Assembly: GCA_903902795.1 (NCBI GenBank)
Contig: CAIUWH010000015.1
Coordinates: 13,279 to 77,278, forward strand
Source of the DNA: an uncultured Bacteroidota bacterium
GTDB taxonomy: Bacteria; Bacteroidota; Bacteroidia; Flavobacteriales; Flavobacteriaceae
DNA: 64,000 nucleotides
Direction of reading: 5' to 3'
A model generated the notes under the pieces. The model did no database searches. It worked only from the letters and a program-made list of their open reading frames with translations, and was not told where the DNA came from. Below are positions 1 through 45,272 of the stretch, piece after piece. The stretch's first letter is position 1; every line of letters begins with the position of its first letter. Made by a program: the position numbers and the translations under genes.

Positions 1-1410
1 AACTGTTGCTTTTAAGGTGTCAATCCAACTGTATCCTACACCATCACTGAACTGTTCTTTTTGTCTCCACGCTACACTTTCGGGCAACATGTCCTCAAAT
101 GCTTTTCGCAACACCCATTTTTCTATTGGATGTTCTTTAGTAATCATTTTATCTTTGGGATTCACTCGCATGGCTACATCCATAAATTCTTTATCTAAAA
201 AGGGAACTCGTCCTTCTATTCCCCATGCTGCAAGACTTTTGTTAGCTCGCAAGCAATCGTACATATGAAGTTTACTTAATTTTCTAACCGTTTCTTCATG
301 AAACTCTCTGGCATTGGGAGCTTTATGAAAATACAGATAGCCACCAAATAATTCATCCGAGCCTTCACCCGACAAGACCATTTTAATTCCCATTGACTTA
401 ATTACGCGAGCCATCAACCACATTGGTGTGGATGCTCGAATAGTTGTTACATCGTACGTTTCCAGATTGTAAATTACATCGCGAATGGCATCCAATCCTT
501 CCTGAATCGTAAATTTAATTTCATGGTGAATGGTACCGATATAATCAGCAACGACTTGCGCAGCAGCCAAATCTGGTGAACCTTCTAGTCCAACTGCAAA
601 TGAATGTAATTGTGGATACCACGCATCTACAGTATCGCCCGATTCAATGCGTTTTTGAGCATATTTTTTAGCGATTGCCGAAGTTATAGATGAATCTAAA
701 CCACCTGAAAGCAACACGCCATAAGGTACATCACTCATTAATTGACGGTGAACGGCAGCTTCGAGTGCTACTTTTATAGCTCCAATACTGGTTTGGTTGT
801 CTTCGACGGCCTCGTAATCCGTCCATTCTCTTTTGTACCATTGCACGAATTCGCCGTCTGTGCTCGACATATAATGACCTGGAGGGAACAGTTGAATTTT
901 AGTACAATAGCCTTCCAACGCTTTTAATTCGGATGCTACATAAAATGTACCATTTTGATCCCAACCGATGTACAACGGAATAATTCCCATGTGATCGCGA
1001 GCGATAAAATATTCATCTTTTTCAGCATCGTAAAGGGCGAATCCGAAGATTCCGTTCATTTCATCAATAAAATGGACTCCTTTTTCTTTGTATAAGGCTA
1101 AAATAACTTCGCAATCGCTTTCGGTTTGAAACTGGTATGTACCTTCAAACTGCTTACGCAAGGCACGATGATTGTATATTTCGCCATTGGCCGCGAGAAC
1201 CAACTTTTTGTCGGCACTGAATAAGGGTTGTTTCCCAGAAGCTGGATCGACAATTGCCAATCGTTCGTGGGCTAAAATCGCTTTATCATTACTGAAAATT
1301 CCGCTCCAATCGGGTCCGCGATGACGAATGATTTTCGCCATTTCCAATACTTGAGGTCGTAAGGTTTCTGCTTTTTGCTTTAAATCGAAGGCGCATACTA
1401 TTCCGCACAT
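1..1410 (-). CDS. asnB: Asparagine synthase B (glutamine-hydrolysing), 3' end runs off the window
   Basis: Hand translation from ATG at 1410 gives MCGIVCAFDLKQKAETLRPQVLEMAKIIRHRGPDWSG (N-terminal Cys of Ntn amidotransferases, HRGPD motif). The same frame reads WRQKEQFSDGVGYSW near position 1. It is absent from the ORF track because there is no stop codon in the window. Confidence 0.95.
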   Translation of the reverse strand, partial: MCGIVCAFDLKQKAETLRPQVLEMAKIIRHRGPDWSGIFSNDKAILAHERLAIVDPASGKQPLFSADKKLVLAANGEIYNHRALRKQFEGTYQFQTESDCEVILALYKEKGVHFIDEMNGIFGFALYDAEKDEYFIARDHMGIIPLYIGWDQNGTFYVASELKALEGYCTKIQLFPPGHYMSSTDGEFVQWYKREWTDYEAVEDNQTSIGAIKVALEAAVHRQLMSDVPYGVLLSGGLDSSITSAIAKKYAQKRIESGDTVDAWYPQLHSFAVGLEGSPDLAAAQVVADYIGTIHHEIKFTIQEGLDAIRDVIYNLETYDVTTIRASTPMWLMARVIKSMGIKMVLSGEGSDELFGGYLYFHKAPNAREFHEETVRKLSKLHMYDCLRANKSLAAWGIEGRVPFLDKEFMDVAMRVNPKDKMITKEHPIEKWVLRKAFEDMLPESVAWRQKEQFSDGVGYSWIDTLKATV

Positions 1411-1626
1411 AATCTTTTTCTTTTAAATGGACAATTCGCGAATTGTCCTTACATTAATTATGAAGCAAAATTGAAGTATTGCTTTATTTATTAAAAGTAA
1501 AAGTAGATAATTAGTTATAAATTAAAACTAAAAGATGCCTTTTACAACAAATATTAAACTTAATTGAATTATAAATATCGGAAAGTGTTATAAATTGTTA
1601 GAACAGATGATTGAATACCATTGAAT

Positions 1627-2070
1627 TTAGGTGATTTCTTGAATAATGAATTTACTTCCATTAATCTCGAACTCAAAACCTACTTCATTTCCCATTAGAG
1701 TAGCTCCTAAAGGCGATTGAGGAGAAACTGCGATAATAGATGTATTGTCAATAGTGATTTTAGGTAATGCCGCACTTATAAACAGCACCATTTGGTTGGC
1801 TTTGACCAAGCTTCCCAATGCGATTTTGGTCGACACATGATTTGGGTTTATTTTGTCTAAAATTGATTTCTGGGTCAACACTTCCGTTAGCTTATGATTG
1901 AGCTTTTCTTGCTCAATGTGCATCATCGACAAGGCTGTTTCGTGTTTGTCGCCTGCAGAACCTTTTGCGTCGTTCTGCGCGTCTTCGGTTAAAGAAGCAA
2001 TCATGTCGCGGAACACATCGATTTTGTCTTGTAGGAGTTGATGGTGGTGTTGGATGATTTTATGTTTCAT
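1627..2070 (-). CDS. GreA/GreB-family small protein (Bacteroidota type)
   Basis: N-terminal coiled coil with SAGDKHETA at the tip; C-terminal LGSLV...VSPQSPLGATLMGNEVG matches the Gre C-terminal domain signature. Confidence 0.75.
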   Translation of the reverse strand: MKHKIIQHHHQLLQDKIDVFRDMIASLTEDAQNDAKGSAGDKHETALSMMHIEQEKLNHKLTEVLTQKSILDKINPNHVSTKIALGSLVKANQMVLFISAALPKITIDNTSIIAVSPQSPLGATLMGNEVGFEFEINGSKFIIQEIT

Positions 2071-2072
2071 GA

Positions 2073-2240
2073 TAGACTTCTTAGAATGTTAGATTGTTAG
2101 ATTGTTAGATTGTTGGACTGTAAGATTTTAAGATTGTAAAAATGTAAAATCAGTTAAAGTTGAAAATAGACCTAAAAAAAACAAGACTTCTTAAAAAAAA
2201 TCTAAGAAGTCTAAGTTAGTCTAGAATTCTAATACCTAGA
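2073..2240. repeat. Inverted pair of degenerate 8-mer tandem arrays (TTAGATTG-type)
   Basis: About nine 8-mers at 2081-2152 (ttagaatg, ttagattg x3, ttggactg, taagattt, taagattg...). Complementary tctaa/tctag units at 2201-2240. Perfect 13-bp inverted repeat 2073-2085 / 2201-2213. Confidence 0.85.
2174..2212 (-). terminator. Probable intrinsic terminator after the TonB-receptor gene
   Basis: 10-bp stem 2184-2193 / 2203-2212, followed on the minus strand by ug and U8 (A8 at 2174-2181). Confidence 0.65.
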
Positions 2241-4041
2241 AATCAAATTTATAATTCGCACCCAAAAGCACTTGAATGCCTTGAACAGGATAATTAATCC
2301 ATCTTTGATAATCTTGTCCCGCTAAGTTATTTCCTTTTAAGAAAAAGGTCAAACGTTCGTTTCGCTTGTAACCTACATAAGCGTTTAAGTCAAAAAAGCT
2401 GTCTAAAGTAGCCGTTTCCGGAATGTAATTAGGTAATGGAGCGGCAGTCAAATCGTCTCTGAATGTAATATCTTTTCGTTCTCCAACAAAAAACACCTTG
2501 GTTCCTGCGTACCATTTATCGGTGATATTGAAATCCACATTAGCAGCAATATTCAATCCAGGTAAATTCCACGCTTCTTCTTCTACATCAGAAGTAAACG
2601 AACTAAATGTTCCATTGATTCCGAACGAAACATTTTTCGAGAAATCGGCTTTCAATTCACCATAAAAACTAACGGTTTTTACATTATCATATACCACATT
2701 AAACGAATTACCAAAGGCATAACCATCTTCATTGGTTGTTAAGAAATTGTACGTATTATTTTTAAATAATGCCTTATTATTTTCATTCATCAACGATCCG
2801 CGCAGATTATACCCAATCGTATTGGATAATTTCCCGCGTAAACCTATATAAATATCATACTTTTGATCGGTCGGACCAATGGCTAAGGTAGGCGACACAA
2901 AAAAGTTTTCTTGAGCAAAATCTTTATAGGAGTTTTGTTGTAGTGTTCCTTCAGCTCCCGCGTACGCAATCATTAAATCGCCCACCACTTTGTAGGAAGC
3001 ATTGATTTGTGGATAAATAAAGAACTTATTGTCGCCACCTTCGTTAGCAACGCTGTAGAAAAATGCAGCTCCAAGATTTACCGACAAATCTTCTTGATTG
3101 AGTTGAAAACTAGGATGAAATCCGATATTGGTGTTCCCATATTTATAAGATTCACCACCTAAATACGTTTGATCAAAACTCCCGTTTAAGTAATCAAAAA
3201 TAAAGGTTGCATTTATTTTTTCATCCAACACATCAAAGGCTAAATTAGGTTTGGCATAGAAACGATTTTCACCCGACGAAAAGGCGTCCCAAAAGCGAGT
3301 AAATTTAACTTCTGCTTCTTTAAAAATACTCTCTTTCAAACTTAGTCGACCACCCAAATCGAGTGTATGGTAGGTTTGTTGTTCGTCAATAGTATTGATA
3401 AACTCATCCCTATCTGACGGAGAAAGATTTTGATAAAAAACTGGATTTAAACCATACCAATTATATAGTTGATTGTGGTAGCCAAGATCGACATTCCATG
3501 CCAGATTTCTAGCTTTACTTCCATAGGTTACATCGAGTTCGGTATCGAAAAATTTATCATCTAAAATTACTTCGTCGATTCCGCCTTGCGATGAACTGTG
3601 ACGGAGCATGGCACCAATATAATTGTTGTTTGCCAAGGTTTGAGTAACAAACAACTCGGCATTGATGTTTCCGTAATTTCCGGCTGCTAGCGTTAAATAA
3701 TTTCTGAATAATTTCTCTTTGGCCGATTTCTCTACTCCAGCCGCCTTTCCTTTGGATGGCGTAAACGTGGAAGCCACAGGAAACGAAAATATGGTGTACT
3801 CGATGGTTTCCTTTTTGTTGGTTTCTTCGTCTTCAAAAGAGGGAGTTTCTTTCACTTTAAATGCGTCCGAAATACTTGGCGTGTATGGTTTTACTACGTT
3901 TACGACTTCGCTTCCGATGTTTTCGTCTTTCTTTTGGGAAAACGAAAATTGGGTTGCTAAAAGCAGACTAATAGATAATAGACTAATAGATGATAGACTA
4001 TCAAATTGTGTAAACCGAAATATATTTGTTTTAAAATTCAT
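2236..4041 (-). CDS. Outer-membrane TonB-dependent-receptor-like beta-barrel
   Basis: Signal peptide; EVVNVVKPYTPSISDAFK motif of the Bacteroidota family usually found next to a large TPR gene; C-terminal GANYKFDF with terminal Phe. Confidence 0.8.
   Translation of the reverse strand: MNFKTNIFRFTQFDSLSSISLLSISLLLATQFSFSQKKDENIGSEVVNVVKPYTPSISDAFKVKETPSFEDEETNKKETIEYTIFSFPVASTFTPSKGKAAGVEKSAKEKLFRNYLTLAAGNYGNINAELFVTQTLANNNYIGAMLRHSSSQGGIDEVILDDKFFDTELDVTYGSKARNLAWNVDLGYHNQLYNWYGLNPVFYQNLSPSDRDEFINTIDEQQTYHTLDLGGRLSLKESIFKEAEVKFTRFWDAFSSGENRFYAKPNLAFDVLDEKINATFIFDYLNGSFDQTYLGGESYKYGNTNIGFHPSFQLNQEDLSVNLGAAFFYSVANEGGDNKFFIYPQINASYKVVGDLMIAYAGAEGTLQQNSYKDFAQENFFVSPTLAIGPTDQKYDIYIGLRGKLSNTIGYNLRGSLMNENNKALFKNNTYNFLTTNEDGYAFGNSFNVVYDNVKTVSFYGELKADFSKNVSFGINGTFSSFTSDVEEEAWNLPGLNIAANVDFNITDKWYAGTKVFFVGERKDITFRDDLTAAPLPNYIPETATLDSFFDLNAYVGYKRNERLTFFLKGNNLAGQDYQRWINYPVQGIQVLLGANYKFDF
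3965..4002. repeat. Downstream repeat arm of the four-helix-bundle cassette (ATAGACTA/ATAGAT[A/G] units), inside the TonB-receptor signal-peptide coding region
   Basis: agacta atagata atagacta atagatg atagacta tc; translated on the minus strand as SLSSISLLSISLL. Confidence 0.85.
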
Positions 4042-4047
4042 TTTTAT

Positions 4048-4410
4048 TTAATTTAAAGTATTTTGAAATGACATAGTAGCCTTTTGTAATTCTTCTATTT
4101 TAGATTCTATACTATTTGAAATATCATCAGAAATAAAACTATTCGCATTAGCAATTAAGATTTGTGTTTGAAGTTCAAATGACGAACCTAAAGCGATATC
4201 TAAAAAATGACTAAAGGATTTATTACTTCTACTTGAACCTTCTGCAATATTTGATGAAATTGACACAGAACATCTATTCATCTGACTAATCAATCCATAC
4301 TTTTCTGAAGTGGGTAAACTTGATGTCAATTGAAAAATATCCTTAGCTAAATCCATTGACATTATCCAAATTTTAAGTTTTTTAAAGTTATGCCTCTTAA
4401 AATCATTCAT
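4048..4410 (-). CDS. Four helix bundle protein (23S rRNA IVS / Avd-like family)
   Basis: FKKLKIW...EKYGLISQMNRCSVSISSNIAEG...FLDIALGSSFELQTQ signature; 120 aa. Confidence 0.92.
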   Translation of the reverse strand: MNDFKRHNFKKLKIWIMSMDLAKDIFQLTSSLPTSEKYGLISQMNRCSVSISSNIAEGSSRSNKSFSHFLDIALGSSFELQTQILIANANSFISDDISNSIESKIEELQKATMSFQNTLN

Positions 4411-4417
4411 AGTTTTA

Positions 4418-4453
4418 AGTCTATTATCTATTAGTCTATTCTCTTTCGTCTAT
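4418..4453. repeat. Upstream repeat arm of the four-helix-bundle cassette
   Basis: agtctattatctattagtct (4418-4437) is the exact reverse complement of 3965-3984; an extra gtctat unit at 4448-4453 overlaps the TPR stop codon. Confidence 0.85.
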
Positions 4454-7400
4454 TTAATAATTGACGAATTAGTTTTGGCTTCTTCTGTTTTAATGACATC
4501 CAACTCAGTTTGAGCTTCTAGAAGTACGTCGTCAAATTCTTTGAAATTTTCCAATACACTTTCTAAAATGTAGGTCGCATTGAAGCTATCTTTTAGTCCG
4601 TAAAAGTTTTTCGCCATTACAATTAATCCTTTCGCACCGAAATATTTATATCCTGAATAATCTTTTGACAATTTCTGAACGGCTTTATTTGAGTCTTCAT
4701 ATTTTCCGTCTTTGTTTTTAAAATACGCATCGTAGTACAAGGCTTCTGCAGCTAATTCACCTTTGGCAATTTTTAATAAATTCGCATAGGCTGTTCTGGC
4801 TTTGGCTTCATCATTGACTTTAATCGCAGAACGCGCTACAATAATTTGTGCATCACTTTTTACCTTGTTGTCGGTTTTGGGATTGTTCAGCACTTTATCA
4901 GCATACACCACAGCATTGGAATAGTCCTTCTGATCATAATACGCGCGCATCAAATTGGATTGTGCGAAGGTGATGTTTTGTGGAAAATCGGCTTCGGCTT
5001 CCAATCGTTTTAAAACCGGAATCGCTTTCGCAAAATCGTTTTTATTTAAGTGAATTTCGGATAAACGAGCGAGCGATTGTTCAGTGAATTCGTTGCGTGA
5101 TTTAGCAATCACGTATTCGTAATTCGGAATCGCGTTCGACTGCAAATTATCAGCAAAATACAACTGACCCAAGTAGAAATTAGCTTTCAAGGCATGAATT
5201 CCGTTTGGAAATTTAGAAACGTAACCGTTTAATGACGAAATCGCTTGTTTGACATTGTTTTGTAAATACTGTTTTTCTGCGGCTTCGTAGGTATCATTAT
5301 CCAATTCAGCATCCGAAACCTCAACAAAATCAAGTGTTCGCACCCACGAAGCGTATTCATCCACTTTTCCGTTATCCATATAAATCAAACGTGCGGTAGA
5401 AACAGCCTCTAAAGCTTCGGGCGATTTTGGAAAATCAGCCGCTACTTTTTTGAATTTTGTGATTGCTAATTCGCCTTTGTTGCCATTATAATACACCAAA
5501 CCTTGACGTAAAATTGCTTTAGAAGCGTACAACCCTTTCGGGAACTCTTTTAATAACTGATCATAAGTCGTCAACGCCAATTCGGTTTTGCCGTCTGCAA
5601 CATAGGTGTTACCTAGTTCAAATAATGAATCATCACGGTATTGCGACGTTTTGAAATTCTGCAAGAACTTATTAAAATCTTCAATTTTCTTATCGTTTTT
5701 CTGTACAAATCCGTAGCTGATCGCCTTCTGAAATGCGGCATAGTCGGCGTCTACACTTTTCAACTCAATGGCTTTGTTGTAGGCATCCATCGCTGGCCAG
5801 TATTTTGCCGCTACGAAACGACTGTCACCCAATCGAAGATAGGCATCATTCAAACGCGTTTTATCATCTTTGGATACATCGATGTAACTTTGGAAATAAT
5901 TTCCAGCTTGGTCGTATTCTTTTTGTTTGAAATAGGCGTAGGCAATATTGTAATTGATGTTTTTGAATTCGGGTGTATTTTTCGCTTCAGCAAATCCTTC
6001 AAACTGCTTAAAACTCAACAAAGCCTCGTTGAAACTGTCTAAAACGTATTCGGTTTCACCTTTCCAAAAAGTAGCGCGGGCTGCAAATTTTTGGTCTTTT
6101 TGCTCTGCAATTGACTTCTTAAACATTTTCAAAGCGTCCTGGTAACTTCCGTCGGTGTACAATTCTAATCCGCGGTAGAACGTCACTTTTTGATAGGCGG
6201 ATTTGTAAAGCGGATTTCTATTTTTCTCCAACAAGGTCAACGCTTCTTTATAATTTTTGGACGTGATGTACGAATTAATCAACAAACCCTCGATTTCATC
6301 TTTACTAGGTGAACTTGGGTATTTAGTAATAAAAGCCGACAAAACATCCGGCACACTTTGGTAGGAATTACCCAATTCGTAACTCAGTTTCGCATAATTC
6401 AAATTGGCATCTTCTTGAATTTTTTTGTCGAAATCCATTTCAGAAGCACTTTTAAACGCATTCAATGCTTGTTGTTTTCTATCGCTTTTCAAATAACTTT
6501 CACCCAGATGGTAATAGGCATTTTGCGAAATAAAATCAGTTCCATCAATAATTTTATTGAATTGCGAAATGGCGTTTTCAAAATCGTTCAACTTGTAATG
6601 CGTGTAACCCAATTGATAATAATCGGTATTGTTCCATTTGCCTTTTCTTCCTTTATATTCTTTCAAATAAGGCAAGGCTTTATCGTATTGTTTGAGGTTG
6701 AAATAACTTTCGCCTATTATTTTGTTGAGTTCTGATTTTTCGGCTGCGTTCGATTTGGCCATTGCTACTGTACCTAAATCGATTGCTTTTTGAAAATTCC
6801 CCAACTTAAAATTCATGTCAGCCTGAAAATAAGACAGCTTTTCTTTGTATTTCTCTTCGCCTGAAATTTGGTCAAAATACTTAGTTGCTTCTTTGTAATC
6901 GTCATTTTCATAGGACATCGTTCCTAGATAATATTTGGCTTGCGCACCGTATTCTTTGGAATTCGCGACTTTATTGAGGTAATTGGTCGCTTCCTTTTTC
7001 TTTCCCGCCGAATAATAGGCGTATCCTTTTTGAAAGTTGAATTTTTCCAATTCTGTATACGTTAGTACACTTTCGTCTACTTTATCAAAATACTCTAGCG
7101 CTTGAGGATAGCGTCCGGCTTCAAAATAATAATGCGCCACTCCTACAAACGCTTGGTTTTGTTTGGTGCTGGTTGGGTAATCCGAAACAAAATCTTCCAT
7201 CAATTGATCCGCGTTACTTTGATCGAGGCGAATGGCGGAATTGGCAATATAAAACGAACAATCCGACATTACTTCTTGGTTGGTCGATTTTTGTTTCACT
7301 TTTTCGAATAAAATCTGAGCTGCTAAAAACTGTTTGTCATTGTACAGCGCAACCGCTTTGTCAAAATCGGAATTGTCATGCGTATTTATTGCTGATTGTT

Positions 7401-7464
7401 GAGCGTTTAGGGACAAACTTCCCGTCCATAAAATAAGATAAAGTAACATCGAAAATTTTCGCAT
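4450..7464 (-). CDS. Large tetratricopeptide-repeat periplasmic protein
   Basis: Many TPR-like helical repeats. Likely start MRKFSMLLYL at 7464, which gives a signal peptide; the ORF-track start at 7554 looks like an over-extension. Confidence 0.88.
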   Translation of the reverse strand: MRKFSMLLYLILWTGSLSLNAQQSAINTHDNSDFDKAVALYNDKQFLAAQILFEKVKQKSTNQEVMSDCSFYIANSAIRLDQSNADQLMEDFVSDYPTSTKQNQAFVGVAHYYFEAGRYPQALEYFDKVDESVLTYTELEKFNFQKGYAYYSAGKKKEATNYLNKVANSKEYGAQAKYYLGTMSYENDDYKEATKYFDQISGEEKYKEKLSYFQADMNFKLGNFQKAIDLGTVAMAKSNAAEKSELNKIIGESYFNLKQYDKALPYLKEYKGRKGKWNNTDYYQLGYTHYKLNDFENAISQFNKIIDGTDFISQNAYYHLGESYLKSDRKQQALNAFKSASEMDFDKKIQEDANLNYAKLSYELGNSYQSVPDVLSAFITKYPSSPSKDEIEGLLINSYITSKNYKEALTLLEKNRNPLYKSAYQKVTFYRGLELYTDGSYQDALKMFKKSIAEQKDQKFAARATFWKGETEYVLDSFNEALLSFKQFEGFAEAKNTPEFKNINYNIAYAYFKQKEYDQAGNYFQSYIDVSKDDKTRLNDAYLRLGDSRFVAAKYWPAMDAYNKAIELKSVDADYAAFQKAISYGFVQKNDKKIEDFNKFLQNFKTSQYRDDSLFELGNTYVADGKTELALTTYDQLLKEFPKGLYASKAILRQGLVYYNGNKGELAITKFKKVAADFPKSPEALEAVSTARLIYMDNGKVDEYASWVRTLDFVEVSDAELDNDTYEAAEKQYLQNNVKQAISSLNGYVSKFPNGIHALKANFYLGQLYFADNLQSNAIPNYEYVIAKSRNEFTEQSLARLSEIHLNKNDFAKAIPVLKRLEAEADFPQNITFAQSNLMRAYYDQKDYSNAVVYADKVLNNPKTDNKVKSDAQIIVARSAIKVNDEAKARTAYANLLKIAKGELAAEALYYDAYFKNKDGKYEDSNKAVQKLSKDYSGYKYFGAKGLIVMAKNFYGLKDSFNATYILESVLENFKEFDDVLLEAQTELDVIKTEEAKTNSSIIK

Positions 7465-7667
7465 AGCCTTGTGTTTTGTAATTACCAAAATTAGATTAGT
7501 ATGCAAGGATAACGAACCATAGCGGTTATTTATTATAAACATTTTTCTTAACAATTTAAAGGACTGACGAAGTATCCAGTAAATAATTGTAAATCATGAA
7601 TAAATCATAATTTTATTTTGAAAAGCTACGTTATCTTATTACTTTTACCCACTAAATTAAACATCTT

Positions 7668-8351
7668 ATGTCTGAATCTGTTTTATCGTTAAAAAACGTT
7701 AGTATTTATCAATCGAATAGAGTAATCTTGTCGAACATCAACTTAGAAGTGAAACACGGCGAGTTCATTTACATTATTGGTAAGACAGGTTCGGGAAAAA
7801 GTAGTTTGATCAAAATGCTTTACGGTGATTTGCCTTTAACTACCGGAGAAGGTCATATTGTAGAATACGATTTGGTGCATTTGAAGGAAAAAGAAATTCC
7901 GTTTTTACGCCGAAAAATTGGTATTGTATTCCAAGATTTTCAATTGCTTCCGGATCGAAATGTATCCGATAACATGCTTTTTGTATTGAAAGCCACTGGC
8001 TGGACTGATAAAGAGCAAATGCAAAATAAAATGGAAGAAGTATTGGATAAGGTAGGCATGAAAGGATTTGCAACTAAAATGCCACACCAATTGTCCGGCG
8101 GTGAACAACAACGTGTTGCTATTGCACGCGCATTGTTAAACGATCCAGAGTTTATTTTAGCAGATGAACCAACCGGTAATTTAGATCCTCAAACCAGTGT
8201 AGAAGTTTTGGATGTTTTGAAAAAAATCAACGCCAACGGAAAAACGATTATCATGGCTACTCATGATTACGCATTATTGATGAAGTTCCCATCGAAAACT
8301 TTAAAATGTGAAGACGGTTCTATTTTTGAGGTAGTTCAGAAAACAGTTTAA
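7668..8351 (+). CDS. ftsE: FtsE-like ABC ATP-binding protein
   Basis: Walker [44 protein letters not shown]. Confidence 0.8.
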
Positions 8352-9604
8352 CGGATTTTCCCTTTATCTTTTAAAAATTTAGCCGTTAAAACAATAACTA
8401 AAGGAAAGAATACCATATGGAAACGGTCGCCCTGACTGAACGTAATTCCTGAAACAGCAATGATGTAGAGGATAAAACTTGAAAGCAAAGTAAAAAAGAC
8501 TTCCTTTCGGTAACTTGTTACAAAATAGAAGAGCGCTAAAATCCCACCAAATAGCGTGAAGAAACGGTTTTGCCACTTCGATATATCAAAAATTACGTCC
8601 TTCGAGAAATCAAAATAACGAGTATTTTTTTTATTTTGACAATCGGCAATTGCGGCTGACCCTGAAACGGTATTGTCATAAATATCTGAAAAATAAGCTT
8701 TTAGCAAATTTAACTTGTTGTTCTTGAGTTGATCGAGTACATCTTGCCGCACCACTTTTTGAATTTCATCGTGCGAACCCAAATTCAATAAGTTATTTGC
8801 CCTCGGATTATCGATTTCTGTATAATCCACACCATCTTTGTAACTCATGGCTTTCGCACCGATATAATTATAGTACGTAACTCCATCAATATAACTAATG
8901 GTAAAACTTCCGAATTGATGGTACAAGCCGGCGCATTGAATTAAAACCAATAGTATGCTTCCATAAACTAAAAGCATTGCTTTTTTGGCATAATTTTCAA
9001 CTATAACTTTGATGAAATAAATTCCGAAAACAAAAGCAATCCACTTCGAACCCGGACGAATAAGCATGCTACAAATCAGAATCGACAGTGCTAATGATAA
9101 AAACAGTATTTTCTTGTTTCTGTAATATTTCATCAAAAAAAACATCGATAGTACGATGAAAAAAGTATAAATAGTTTCGGAAAGTAGGTGATACAACACA
9201 GCAATTGCGCCGACACTGGTATAGAAAATCAACGTACAATAAAACGCCATTCGTGCGGTACTAAAATCTTTGAGAATATGAAATAGTAAAACGGCCGTTG
9301 CGAGCCAACAAAAGACATTGACATAAAAACTAAAAACATAGACTGTTGCATCGCTTGCTCCAAATAAGAAGGGAACTCCGTTTATCGCCGACATAAGAAT
9401 CGGTCTATAATCATGACCTCTAAAATAAACCATCAGATTTTTGGAAGCAACCAAATAATTATCAGAATCGGCGTAAACATGAGTTTGAATATCTAGCTGA
9501 AGAAAAAAATTCAAAAGCGCCAACGTGAGCACGCCAAAAAAGAGAATTAGCAATTCGAATTTATATTTTTGGAAGCGTTCGATCATAGAAACAAAACTAA
9601 TCAA
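8348..9604 (-). CDS. Polytopic membrane protein, possible GT-C/ArnT-like glycosyltransferase or polymerase
   Basis: About 10 hydrophobic segments; DSDNY...RP and LLSETIY motifs resembling GT-C proteins; adjacent to the glycan cluster. Confidence 0.5.
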   Translation of the reverse strand: MISFVSMIERFQKYKFELLILFFGVLTLALLNFFLQLDIQTHVYADSDNYLVASKNLMVYFRGHDYRPILMSAINGVPFLFGASDATVYVFSFYVNVFCWLATAVLLFHILKDFSTARMAFYCTLIFYTSVGAIAVLYHLLSETIYTFFIVLSMFFLMKYYRNKKILFLSLALSILICSMLIRPGSKWIAFVFGIYFIKVIVENYAKKAMLLVYGSILLVLIQCAGLYHQFGSFTISYIDGVTYYNYIGAKAMSYKDGVDYTEIDNPRANNLLNLGSHDEIQKVVRQDVLDQLKNNKLNLLKAYFSDIYDNTVSGSAAIADCQNKKNTRYFDFSKDVIFDISKWQNRFFTLFGGILALFYFVTSYRKEVFFTLLSSFILYIIAVSGITFSQGDRFHMVFFPLVIVLTAKFLKDKGKIR

Positions 9605-21728: not shown

Positions 21729-21820
21729 TACGAAGTACGAGATACGAAGTGGGAAATGAAAAGAAGAAATAACTACCTATATTTACCTCGTATATCGTAC
21801 TTCAACCTTCGTACTTCACA
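21729..21820. repeat. Inverted pair of heptamer arrays (TACGAAG / CTTCGTA) between convergent genes
   Basis: tacgaag tacgaga tacgaag ... cctcgta tatcgta cttcaac cttcgta cttcaca; 21732-21749 pairs with 21786-21803 at 16/18 positions. Confidence 0.85.
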
Positions 21821-39295: not shown

Positions 39296-40483
39296 ATGAA
39301 TAACGATTTCCTAAAATACCAAGCACAAACTTCGCCTTACCCATTAGGAATGGAAGTTTCACATGCCATTGGTTCCTACATCTACGATACAAATAATAAG
39401 AAATACCTCGACTTTGTTGCGGGTGTTTCGGCTTGCTCTTTAGGCCATCAAAACCCACGAGTCAATCAAGCTATTAAAGAACAATTGGATAAGTATTCGC
39501 ATGTAATGGTGTATGGCGAATATTCACAAAGTCCAGCTGTGCAGTATTGCAAACTATTGGTCGAACACTTACCACCACAATTAAATAAAGTCTACTTAGT
39601 TAATTCGGGGACCGAAGCCTGTGAAGGCGCATTAAAACTTGTACGAAGAGTGACTGGTAGAAGTCAGCTAATTTCCTGCCATAATGCTTACCACGGCAAC
39701 ACTATGGGCTCGATGAGCGTGATGGGATTTGAAGAACGGAAGCAAGTATTTCGTCCGTTGATTCCCGATGTCGATTTCATCACCTTCAATAACGAGGCCG
39801 ACATCCAAAAAATCACTAGCAAGACAGCCGGAATTATTTTGGAAAGTATTCAAGGTGGTGCAGGATTTATTCAGCCCGAAAACGACTTCTTAGCTAAAGT
39901 AAAAAAAAGATGCGAGGAAGTTGGTACATTGATGATTATCGATGAAATTCAACCCGGATTTGGACGAACCGGAAAATTATTCGGCTTTGAAAACTACAAT
40001 GTGGTTCCCGATGTAGTCATCATCGGAAAAGGAATGGCAGGCGGAATGCCCGTTGGCGGATTCATTGCACACGAAAAGCACATGGATCTGTTGAGTCATG
40101 ATCCGAAACTCGGACACATCACCACTTTTGGCGGACATCCTGTCATTGCGGCAGCTTGTTTGGCAACATTGCAAGAAATACTTGAAAATGACTATGCTTC
40201 GCAGTCATTAGCGAAAGAAAAGCTGTTTCGTTCGCTTTTGGTACATCCTTTGATAATAGAAGTAAGAGGAAAAGGATTAATGTTGGCTGCTATGACCTCC
40301 GACGAAGAAATAACCAATCAAGTTGTTTTGCGATGTCAAGAAAAAGGATTGATATTATTTTGGTTGTTGTTTGAAGGAAAAGCAATCCGAATCACACCAC
40401 CCTTAACAATTTCTGAAGAAGAAATTAAAGAAGGTTGCCAAATTATATTGGATGTGATGGATGAAGTTCAAAAAGGTTTATAG
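39296..40483 (+). CDS. Class-III PLP aminotransferase (acetylornithine aminotransferase-like)
   Basis: NSGTEACEGA, YHGNT, DEIQPGFGRTG, IGKGMAGG, TTFGGHP. Confidence 0.9.
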   Translation: MNNDFLKYQAQTSPYPLGMEVSHAIGSYIYDTNNKKYLDFVAGVSACSLGHQNPRVNQAIKEQLDKYSHVMVYGEYSQSPAVQYCKLLVEHLPPQLNKVYLVNSGTEACEGALKLVRRVTGRSQLISCHNAYHGNTMGSMSVMGFEERKQVFRPLIPDVDFITFNNEADIQKITSKTAGIILESIQGGAGFIQPENDFLAKVKKRCEEVGTLMIIDEIQPGFGRTGKLFGFENYNVVPDVVIIGKGMAGGMPVGGFIAHEKHMDLLSHDPKLGHITTFGGHPVIAAACLATLQEILENDYASQSLAKEKLFRSLLVHPLIIEVRGKGLMLAAMTSDEEITNQVVLRCQEKGLILFWLLFEGKAIRITPPLTISEEEIKEGCQIILDVMDEVQKGL

Positions 40484-40551
40484 TTTATGGTTTATAGTTA
40501 GTTGTTAACTTCGAACATAAACGATAAACAATAAACCATCAGCAATAAACT
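40475..40551. repeat. Inverted pair of heptamer arrays ([G/A]GTTTAT / ATAAAC[N])
   Basis: ggtttat agtttat ggtttat ... ataaacg ataaaca ataaacc atcagca ataaact; 40475-40495 pairs with 40517-40537 at 19/21 positions. Confidence 0.85.
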
Positions 40552-43028: not shown

Positions 43029-45272
43029 ATGTTAGAAGAAAAGAATGATAACCTGCCAGCGACTGAAAATGAGGCAGACGGAAATGTAAACAACGATTTG
43101 CAAGAAACAATTAGTATTGAAAATCAGGAAGTTGAGCCAATCGAGGAAACTAGTGAAGAAGCAGTAGAATTGATTTCGGATACTGAAGTGGAAGCTCCAA
43201 TTGCAGCGGAAGAAACTGTTGAAGAAACTGTAGAATTAGTTCCTGATACTGAAGTAGAAGCGCCGATTATTGCAGAAGAGGAACAAGAAAATGATGTAGA
43301 AGTTGAAGATCTTGTTGGCGAACAAATCACGGAAACTCCTACAGAAGTCTCAACTCCGGAAAACACTGCTGATGTTGAAAGCGAAGTTTCTACAGAAGTT
43401 GAAAACGTAATTGAACTTACAGACGAACAAGTTGCAGACGATGCCATGGTTTATGAAGATGAATCTGACTTTGTGATGAATGCAATCTCCAACGTAAATG
43501 CAGAAGAAAGCGAAGACGAAACCTTAAAAGACCGTCATGATATTCCGATGGAAGATTATGAAGCGATGTCGATGGAAGCCTTAGTAGCTGAGCTTGAAAA
43601 ATTGGCTGAAGTTGAAAAAGTAATGTCGGTTAAAGACCATGTGGAAGAAATAAAAAAATCGTTTTTATCGAAATACTATCATTTTATCGATGAGAAAAAA
43701 GATGAATGGCAGGCTCAAAATCCTGACACCACGGAAGATTTCCATTATCATTTCCCATTAAAAGCAGTTTTTGACAACGCTTACAATCAATATAAAGCAA
43801 GGAAAAATAGTCATTTTAAATCACTGCAAAGCAATTTAGAAACGAATTTAAAAAATCGTTTGGCTTTGGTAGAAGAATTAAAAAATTTAGTCAATAATTC
43901 AACCGGAAACATCTCAACGGCTTTAAAGCAATTGAATGACATCAGAGAACGTTGGAAAAACGCCGGTCCGATTCCGAAAGACAAATACAACCACGTTTGG
44001 AATAACTACCATTTCCACATTGAAAACTTCTACGATTTCTTGCATTTGGATCGCGAAGCCCGTGACTTGGATTTCAAACACAATTTAGAATTAAAGCAAA
44101 AAATTATAGCACGCGTTGAAGAGTTATTACACGAAAGTGACATCAACAAGGCGTTCAGAGAATTACAGGATTTACACCGCATCTGGAAAGAAGAAATCGG
44201 ACCTGTTTCTCGTGAACAACGCGAACTAATTTGGACACAATTCAGTGATCTGACCAAACAAATGCACGACAAACGCGAGGCCTTTTACGAAAGTTTTCGA
44301 GAAAAAGAAAACGAAAACTTAGCTAAGAAAAAAGAACTTATTGCTCAAATCGAAACCTTGGCTATCGAAAAAGTTGATTCGCACGGCGCTTGGCAAGAGC
44401 AAATGGCAAAAGTGGAAGCGTTGCGAAATACATTCTTCGCTACAGGTAAAGTTCCGAGTGAAGTCAATGAACAAACGTGGGCGGAATTTAAAAACGCGGT
44501 GAAGGATTTCAACGTACTTAAAAATTCGTTTTACAAAGACATCAAGAAAGACCAAAACGATAATTTATCCAAAAAACAAGCGTTGGTTGCGAAAGCCAAC
44601 GAGTTGAAAGAAAGCGAAGATTTTGCAGCTACGACTCCAATCATGAAGCAAATTCAGGAGGAATGGAGATCAATTGGACATGTACCGCGCAAATTTTCTG
44701 ACAAATTGTGGGGCGAATTCAAACAAGCCTGCAACCACTATTTTGACCGTTTGAAAGACAGCAAAAAAGAGGAAAACGCTGAAGAAGTTGAAGCATTTGA
44801 AAAGAAAAAAGAATACCTTGAATCGATGAAATCGTTTGAATTGGTGGGCGATCACAAAACCGATTTGGATGCAATAAAAGCGCACATCGAAACATGGAAA
44901 ACCATAGGTAAAGTGCCGTTTAACCGTCGCCATATCGAAGGGAAATTCAATAAAATATTAGATGCACTTTTTGACAAATTGAGTTCGAGTAAAAAAGAAG
45001 GAGAAAAATTGCGTTTTGCCAACCGATTGGATCAATTATCAAGTTCGGATGATACGCGTAAATTGGATAACGAAAAGATATTCATGATGCGTAAGATTGA
45101 CGAAATTCAGGGTGAAATCTTCCAATTGGAAAACAACATTCAGTTTTTTGCCAATGCTAAAGCCGATAATCCTATGGTAAAAGAAGTACGTAAAAACATC
45201 GAACGCCAAAAAGAAGAATTGTTGGTTTGGAAAGACAAATTGAAACAATTGAGAAATCTGAAAAAAGAATAA
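43029..45272 (+). CDS. DUF349 domain protein with acidic low-complexity N-terminus
   Basis: Repeated ERWKNAGPIP / EEWRSIGHVP / TWKTIGKVP units; start MLEEKND at 43029. Confidence 0.85.
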   Translation: MLEEKNDNLPATENEADGNVNNDLQETISIENQEVEPIEETSEEAVELISDTEVEAPIAAEETVEETVELVPDTEVEAPIIAEEEQENDVEVEDLVGEQITETPTEVSTPENTADVESEVSTEVENVIELTDEQVADDAMVYEDESDFVMNAISNVNAEESEDETLKDRHDIPMEDYEAMSMEALVAELEKLAEVEKVMSVKDHVEEIKKSFLSKYYHFIDEKKDEWQAQNPDTTEDFHYHFPLKAVFDNAYNQYKARKNSHFKSLQSNLETNLKNRLALVEELKNLVNNSTGNISTALKQLNDIRERWKNAGPIPKDKYNHVWNNYHFHIENFYDFLHLDREARDLDFKHNLELKQKIIARVEELLHESDINKAFRELQDLHRIWKEEIGPVSREQRELIWTQFSDLTKQMHDKREAFYESFREKENENLAKKKELIAQIETLAIEKVDSHGAWQEQMAKVEALRNTFFATGKVPSEVNEQTWAEFKNAVKDFNVLKNSFYKDIKKDQNDNLSKKQALVAKANELKESEDFAATTPIMKQIQEEWRSIGHVPRKFSDKLWGEFKQACNHYFDRLKDSKKEENAEEVEAFEKKKEYLESMKSFELVGDHKTDLDAIKAHIETWKTIGKVPFNRRHIEGKFNKILDALFDKLSSSKKEGEKLRFANRLDQLSSSDDTRKLDNEKIFMMRKIDEIQGEIFQLENNIQFFANAKADNPMVKEVRKNIERQKEELLVWKDKLKQLRNLKKE

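Follow-up and report, generated by a model that had tools for sequence, protein, structure and literature searches.

Gene-bearing intervening sequences (IVSs) of 23S ribosomal RNA (rRNA), known from helix 45 of Coxiella burnetii and, as S23p-type elements, from Leptospira, Brucella and Xanthomonas, carry genes of the PF05635/S23p family. The Coxiella IVS ends in a 28-bp stem within which RNase III cuts, and tandem GACAGAT heptamers, in a number that varies between strains, precede the ATG of its S23p gene (PMC4990558). The origin of rRNA intervening sequences has been an open question for about thirty years, as have the role of the very large PF05635 family and the meaning of tandem heptamers in bacterial spacers. 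Here we describe a PF05635 gene that lies between two complementary arms of tandem 7–8-nt units in an ordinary protein-coding operon. The locus is in a 64,000-nt stretch of DNA (the window; contig CAIUWH010000015.1, positions 13,279 to 77,278, assembly GCA_903902795.1) from a 2.77-Mb, 37% GC freshwater Flavobacterium assembly (G000). Relative loci are numbered L, relative genomes G, and the contigs or copies within G000 C.

The cassette is part of a series of three head-to-tail genes, all on the minus strand (2236–7554; open reading frame (ORF) list and profile searches), with the transcript order TPR gene, 5′ arm, four-helix-bundle gene and 601-aa gene, the 3′ arm being inside the last. The upstream host gene encodes a 1034-aa TPR-repeat protein (7554..4450) and ends in a TAG at 4452–4450. 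The 5′ arm (4455..4418, minus strand) is purine-rich on the sense strand, ATAGACGA-AAGAGA-ATAGACTA-ATAGATA-ATAGACT, and its array begins on that stop codon (AAA TAG ACG AAA GAG AAT AGA CTA...); the 5′ arms of all ten orthologous cassettes likewise start at or on the stop codon of the TPR gene. Only 7 nt separate the end of this arm from the ATG of the 120-aa four-helix-bundle gene (4410..4048, minus strand). Inside the cassette block, between the stop codon of this gene and the 3′ arm, are the start codon and n-region (MNFKTNIFRFTQFD; 4041..4000, minus strand) of the downstream 601-aa exported protein (4041..2236, minus strand). The 3′ arm (3999..3965, minus strand) is a pyrimidine-rich array, AGTCTATCATCTATTAGTCTATTATCTATTAGTCT, that sits 42 nt into the downstream ORF and is read in frame as SLSSISLLSISL, the hydrophobic core of the signal peptide.

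Positions 3965–3984 and 4418–4437 are 100% complementary over 20 nt, and in a second register (3973–3999 with 4418–4444) 27 nt are complementary at 93%. The arms are made of tandem 8+7-nt units, ATAGACTA and ATAGATA, with a 15-nt super-period, the general type being ATAGAyTA/ATAGATA. The 120-aa protein matched PF05635 with 114 bits (4e-33, residues 10–111, cut-off 33.8) and TIGR02436 with 103 bits (1e-29, cut-off 24) in profile searches, which places it in the family, and its closest solved structure is PDB 2GSC, the pentameric XCC0516 (9e-18). Its ORF has 26.7% GC compared with 37.1% for each neighbour gene, a GC content so low that just 1.5% of 466 control small ORFs match it. The preliminary description of this locus had reported the exact 20-bp inverted repeat, arms of 7–8-nt ATAGA(C/T)TA units, an arm at the TPR stop codon, and a gene AT-richer than its neighbour and belonging to the four-helix-bundle family of 23S rRNA IVSs, and on all these points it proved correct. 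It had also called the downstream gene TonB, a name that has to be withdrawn, as the 601-aa protein had no Pfam or NCBIfam match to a TonB-dependent receptor or to anything else; it is probably an outer-membrane protein of no recognised family, and its neighbourhood with the TPR gene is retained within the genus and outside it. No Bacteroidetes-type −7 box (TAnnTTTG) was found on the coding strand of 3900–4700, and an Rfam scan of 3700–4700 (E up to 10) gave chance snoRNA-like matches only and no rRNA.

The association of such arms with the gene family was measured by a flank score: for each gene, 120 nt of upstream and 120 nt of downstream sequence were compared, and their best inverted match without gaps was taken. 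In G000 the gene set consisted of eight PF05635 genes, seven PDDEXK_3/GxxExxY genes and three small GIY-YIG genes, and 466 ORFs of 90–170 aa from the same genome served as controls. The controls had a median of 8, a 99th percentile of 12 and a maximum of 14. Five of the seven scorable four-helix-bundle genes reached 15–23, and a sixth (C28) has arms matching at 30/34 a little beyond these flanks; four of the seven GxxExxY genes reached 17–23, plus one (C1) at 28/30, and two of the three GIY-YIG genes were high (29 and 35). The arm sequences differ between copies within the genome. At related loci elsewhere in the Bacteroidota, inverted arrays are likewise far commoner than in mismatched flanks, so that the comparison proposed in the preliminary description came out in its favour: 75 loci (Flavobacteriales, Sphingobacteriales, Cytophagales and others) had a median of 15, with 42 of them at 14 or more, against a median of 8 and 12 of 600 at 14 or more when the upstream flank of one locus was combined with the downstream flank of another. 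The relatives were gathered with a three-sequence alignment that gave 79 loci biased to orthologues of a cassette in the beta-oxidation operon, so these loci are not all independent. All 18 such small genes of G000 are AT-rich (26–32% GC) and co-oriented with the upstream gene. A hairpin is symmetric, and the co-orientation bias must therefore come from the ORF, which argues that the ORF is expressed from host transcripts.

Two groups of genes seen alongside this survey have a similar frame. The GIY-YIG genes C58:88732-89126 and C78:23476-23845 lie between perfect 29- and 35-nt inverted repeats (TTTTGTCATTCTGACGAAGGAAGAATCTC; ACAGTCATTGCGAGGAGGAACGACGAAGCAATCTC), a layout that fits the published layout of Ssn nucleases. 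Three IS200/RAYT-like genes (C119:53136-53936, C31:1079-1828 and C28:21428-21871) lie between 27–34-nt inverted repeats, and one of them is the top-scoring 'control' ORF.

In favour of chance, or of misassembly of low-complexity DNA, are the AT-rich, repetitive character of the region and the frequent breaks of metagenome contigs at the arms. By our own arithmetic from base composition (match probability ~0.27 per position), about 0.01 exact 20-nt inverted repeats with a spacing of ≤800 nt are expected in the whole 2.77-Mb genome, and the control distribution stops at 14. The cassette and its arms are identical in nine independent metagenome assemblies, so the cassette is not an assembly artefact, and the layout is retained, with altered arm sequence, in ten orthologues. 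On these grounds chance and artefact were rejected, and we give them practically no weight.

The arms have changed together. In the nine orthologous cassettes compared (protein 79–100% identical), the inner 24 nt of each arm were anchored by sequence, not by pairing, and 90.7% of cells were paired; with the partner slid by 1–3 columns this fell to 27–48%. Five of the 24 pairs have changed on both sides. The covariation score was 0.133 compared with 0.082 in shuffles, of which 1 in 500 was as high, although this control overstates the significance, the nine sequences being related. Individual cases are plain even so, whole units showing the same compensation: ATAGACTA faces TAGTCTAT in two genomes, ATAGACGA faces TCGTCTAT in others, and ATAGACGG faces CCGTCTAT in a third. 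As translation runs through the 3′ arm, a change in pair 9–52 also alters the signal peptide of the downstream protein, switching one residue between Ser (AGT) and Arg (CGT). Export would not be expected to favour an Arg in the hydrophobic core, and we infer from the sequences that a strong pressure or mechanism keeps the two arms alike.

The sequences indicate that the arms belong to the gene and not to the site. In the protein tree the cassette gene and L032, from a distant metagenome-assembled genome (MAG) with the same junction, are sisters nested among cassettes of the beta-oxidation operon. All homologues that are 79–94% identical are at the TPR junction, and the nearest relative away from it, after L032, is a cassette of Chryseobacterium that lies between the genes for thiolase and acyl-CoA dehydrogenase and has arms (ATAGACGG-ATAGATG...) almost equal to those at the TPR site. 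Among 982 pairs of cassettes at different sites, the sharing of arm 6-mers grows with protein identity, from 2–3% below 50% identity to 46% above 70%, and none of 1000 permutations reached the observed correlation between arms and protein.

The gene is not invariant at this locus either: 24 species of the genus have no cassette, and a tree of the downstream host protein intermixes genomes with and without it; the empty G014, for example, is sister to three cassette-bearing genomes (support 100/99). In four comparisons of cassette-bearing and empty junctions, homology ends at the TPR stop codon and resumes 0–9 nt past the 3′ arm; the cassette side has 499–518 nt, and the empty side has an unrelated 85–119 nt, with a different small repeat in two cases. 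What is gained, lost or replaced is therefore a unit that has the arms as its limits. In the window the present/absent block corresponds to 3964..4449 (minus strand; coordinates inferred by homology with L120) and takes in the downstream gene's start codon and n-region. These comparisons showed no target duplication at the block borders. No recent transposition was seen either, the compared paralogues being ≤58% identical, and among the nine assemblies there is no population polymorphism, the cassette being fixed. The suggestion in the preliminary description of a transposase-free mobile unit fits the comparative data to the extent that the same arms and gene occur at different sites.

Other occupants of the same junction were noted. 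The empty junctions L002 (G014) and L017 (G004) have another small repeat (GTCACACTGAGCGCAGTCGAAGTGC and TTGTCATTGCGAGGAAAGAAGTAATC, respectively) resembling the arms associated with GIY-YIG genes, and the spacer between the TPR and exported-protein genes of G017 has a direct TCTCTGTGAA array. This site seems to have undergone repeated colonisation. Likely relics are a gene-less ATAGA-type hairpin (G016), a remnant of the 5′ arm (G011) and an arm-like insert in the signal peptide with the gene absent (G024). An insert of ~1.1 kb in seven relatives (L004, L009, L012, L013 and L018–L020, one subclade) was considered as a cassette and rejected, being an ordinary 287-aa gene between the TPR and exported-protein genes, which from reading its sequence we take to be a PhzF-like isomerase. 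Read joints from other organisms, 85–90% similar, have 130 or 369 letters where the cassette would be.

We favour, with moderate confidence, the reading that this is an IVS-type hairpin cassette in an operon spacer that works through a stem in RNA. It consists of a promoterless, AT-rich PF05635 gene and two co-evolving inverted arms of 7–8-nt tandem units that belong to the cassette. It would derive from relatives in the fatty-acid beta-oxidation operon of Bacteroidota, would have settled between the TPR and exported-protein genes in a freshwater clade of Flavobacterium, and would since have been lost or replaced in several lineages. Transcription of the host operon would read through the cassette, and in the transcript the arms could close a stem of ~27 bp around a loop of ~420 nt, the same geometry that RNase III cleaves in the IVSs of 23S rRNA. 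Processing or structural insulation of the four-helix-bundle mRNA would be the likeliest task of such a stem. Concerted change keeps the arms complementary, and here the 3′ arm has also turned into signal-peptide coding sequence of the next gene.

A long-range stem closes the cassette in both the minimum-free-energy and the centroid folds, in the window and in the orthologue L032. The flank scores, the tracking of the protein by the arm units, the compensatory changes, the arm-bounded block, the strict co-orientation and the lack of a −7 box in the cassette also speak for this reading. RNase III-domain genes are present in G000, and cleavage of the stem by such an enzyme is plausible by analogy with the IVSs. 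The two domain matches are at C23:1852-2217 and C98:16850-17215, in open frames of 199 and 252 aa; one of them may be a Mini-III-like enzyme or contamination.

Several points weigh against this reading. Positions that are not Watson–Crick pairs on the sense strand were G:U in 26 cases and A:C in 29 (51 loci), and 8 and 9, respectively, in the orthologue series; with no excess of G:U, selection on pairing of the sense RNA is not demonstrated, and the complementarity may be maintained in DNA. Cleavage of the stem would break the mRNA of the downstream gene within its signal-peptide codons, which would be costly unless partial. The at least 66 gene-less hairpins of similar unit families in the genome mean that the arms need not serve the gene. 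A search for RNA from the locus gave a single 151-nt metatranscriptome contig within the gene, with no transcript ends, depth profile or joints of the same organism, and thus showed no processing.

The missing wobble bias of the sense strand speaks for an alternative in which the cassette is a DNA-level element framed by its own repeats, of the REP/RAYT or NTS/Ssn kind. Its terminal inverted arrays would then form hairpins in single-stranded DNA and be bound or cut by the pentameric four-helix-bundle protein or by a trans-acting nuclease. Copying from arm to arm, and not selection on RNA, would preserve complementarity, and the RNA stem would be incidental. The way in which arm units track the protein clade over sites and genera is as expected for cognate recognition. 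The 5′ arms have a periodic conserved core, with AGA every 7–8 nt, and a strong purine bias (800 purines compared with 392 pyrimidines), features that in sequence resemble an array of binding sites. Unit families of other cassettes in G000 recur in gene-less hairpins, and PD-(D/E)XK and GIY-YIG nuclease genes have the same layout, which for GIY-YIG is experimentally tied to cleavage of the flanking hairpin repeats in single-stranded DNA (PMC11893778). The four-helix-bundle fold, however, has no known nuclease or recombinase activity; no dispersed copies of the arm unit of this cassette were found in the genome, its 15-nt super-unit being nowhere else, so that there is no REPIN-like dispersal; no near-identical copies occur at two sites, and no polymorphism was seen in the population; and the strict co-orientation with host genes points to dependence on a transcript. 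We regard an element acting at the DNA level as a serious alternative, though possible rather than probable.

The gene-less hairpins also bear on a second alternative, in which the arms are ordinary intergenic hairpins of the host, heptamer arrays made by slippage and serving as intercistronic stabilisers or terminators, and small selfish genes tend to insert or persist in their loops with no functional tie between gene and arms. At least 66 hairpins of this kind, with short loops and arms of tandem 7–9-nt units, occur in the genome, and the unit families GATTGTAAGA, AAATTCC, GCAGAAG, CACAGATT and CATATAAG are common to hairpins and cassettes. At the fadB|thiolase junction of G000 (C44:42166-42325), a gene-less hairpin is built of the 16-nt units AAGAyCGCTGCGCTGC that also form the arms of the cassette one junction downstream (43503-44019). 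G016 has its gene-less ATAGA-type hairpin at the very junction studied here, and heptamer repeats are common in some bacterial genomes (PMC4679880). Host hairpins would nevertheless not be expected to follow the protein tree over different sites, as the arm units do, nor to be near-identical around related proteins at different sites in different families. The present/absent block takes in both arms, empty sites are without such a hairpin, and the coding region in which the 3′ arm lies is not a place for a pre-existing host terminator. We consider this origin of the arms quite unlikely.

Different species have cassettes at all three junctions of the beta-oxidation operon (the first, the second or marR|fadB). 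Arrays vary in form across the sampled loci and the window. In L044 (a Flavobacterium MAG) the 5′ arm has ~14 copies of AGAAACT and the 3′ arm ~4 units, and small GTCCCGATGGCTATCGGGAG palindromes are interleaved with the arrays of L044 and L045. In L031 (Chryseobacterium sp. KCF3-3) a second purine-rich array, 0–130 nt past the stop codon, hairpins with the 3′ arm, making three arrays. The window itself has gene-less inverted arrays of 7–8-nt units at 2073–2240, 21729–21820 and 40475–40551 (TTAGATTG/TAAGATTG, TACGAAG and GGTTTAT types).

A bolder proposal, which we put forward as speculation and think unlikely, is that four-helix-bundle cassettes are autonomous minimal elements. The role of the ring-shaped protein would be to recognise the 7–8-nt units of the arms around its gene, templated copying would restore the complementary arm, and the element would be able to overwrite the 5′ end of a host gene. 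The 23S IVSs, the tandem heptamer repeats of several phyla and the GxxExxY cassettes would then be one class of element. A protein that reads its own arm units would explain why these units follow the protein tree. If the proposal were true, this locus would be an example of overwriting, in which the block supplies the start codon, the n-region and the hydrophobic core of the signal peptide of the downstream protein.

The locus shows the build of an IVS in an ordinary operon together with a graded series of orthologues, and this series gives base pairs with compensatory changes, a defined present/absent block and a readable phenotype through the signal peptide that the arm encodes. These features make the question of RNA versus DNA directly testable in a cultivable Flavobacterium. 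The locus also shows an unusual constraint on protein evolution, in that a non-coding repeat 400 nt upstream can set amino acids (Ser or Arg) in the export signal of a neighbouring protein.

Compared with the known systems, the cassette is closest to the 23S IVS. It is of the same protein family and similar size (~0.45 kb), has a terminal stem of 20–30 bp formed by complementary ends around the ORF and heptamers in the arm before the ATG, and rides on a host transcript; the IVS-like architecture claimed in the preliminary description is that of the ORF-bearing Coxiella IVS (PMC4990558). It differs in that its host is a protein-coding operon and not an rRNA helix, and in that one arm is translated. 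Excision by RNase III has been demonstrated for the IVS and is a plausible fate of the cassette; severing it would split an mRNA, while a fragmented rRNA still functions. As to an IVS in the 23S rRNA of G000 itself, the candidate considered, a paralogue at a contig end (C115), follows dut and not rRNA.

Correia or NEMIS elements of Neisseria are small elements with terminal inverted repeats that lie beside genes and are co-transcribed with them, and cutting of their stem by RNase III alters the fate of the mRNA. They are gene-less, with fixed 26-bp ends and a TA target duplication, whereas the cassette carries a gene and shows no target duplication. Nor does it behave as a miniature inverted-repeat transposable element or insertion sequence: inverted ends are present, with no duplication at the borders and with the compared paralogues no more than 58% identical. 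REP/REPIN sequences and their RAYT genes are alike in that one small gene is framed by inverted repeat copies and related hairpins are dispersed in spacers. Here, however, the protein is a four-helix bundle and not an IS200/IS605-like Y1 transposase, the arms are tandem arrays and not a fixed palindrome, and the flanking repeat is not dispersed, the 15-nt super-unit being confined to the cassette.

We know of no nuclease motif in PF05635. The Ssn nucleases with their NTS/SRM repeats offer a further parallel, a small gene between cognate hairpin repeats, with repeat and protein co-varying between species (PMC11893778). The protein fold is different, not being a GIY-YIG of the cd10448 type, and the Ssn repeats are fixed hairpins, not arrays of tandem units. 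A relation to Avd of diversity-generating retroelements, also raised in the preliminary description, stands as regards the homologous pentameric four-helix-bundle fold (PMC10053308); the match to the bAvd profile PF22296 is weak, its score of 21 falling under the cut-off of 40. The neighbours here are TPR and exported-protein genes, and the ORF list for 1–9000 has no adjacent reverse transcriptase or template/variable repeats.

The short tandemly repeated repetitive (STRR) sequences of cyanobacteria are intergenic tandem heptamer repeats. TAACTGA heptamer repeats occur in Beggiatoaceae, Cyanobacteria and Bacteroidetes (PMC4679880). Such repeats share with the arms their 7-nt units in spacers near start codons and their sporadic distribution, but published descriptions present them as direct arrays that enclose no gene and lack a partner arm, whereas here inverted pairs co-evolve around a specific gene family. 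None of the papers found in our literature searches reports non-rRNA PF05635 genes that are enclosed by a stem with heptamer arms. The cassette is not an IVS by the location that defines one, and its protein sets it apart from RAYT, Ssn and diversity-generating retroelements, yet it is at least built like an IVS, and with REP/RAYT and Ssn it has in common a gene bordered by its own repeats. The layout is widespread and barely described, and to it this locus adds a translated arm, a series of compensatory changes and a present/absent block bounded by the arms.

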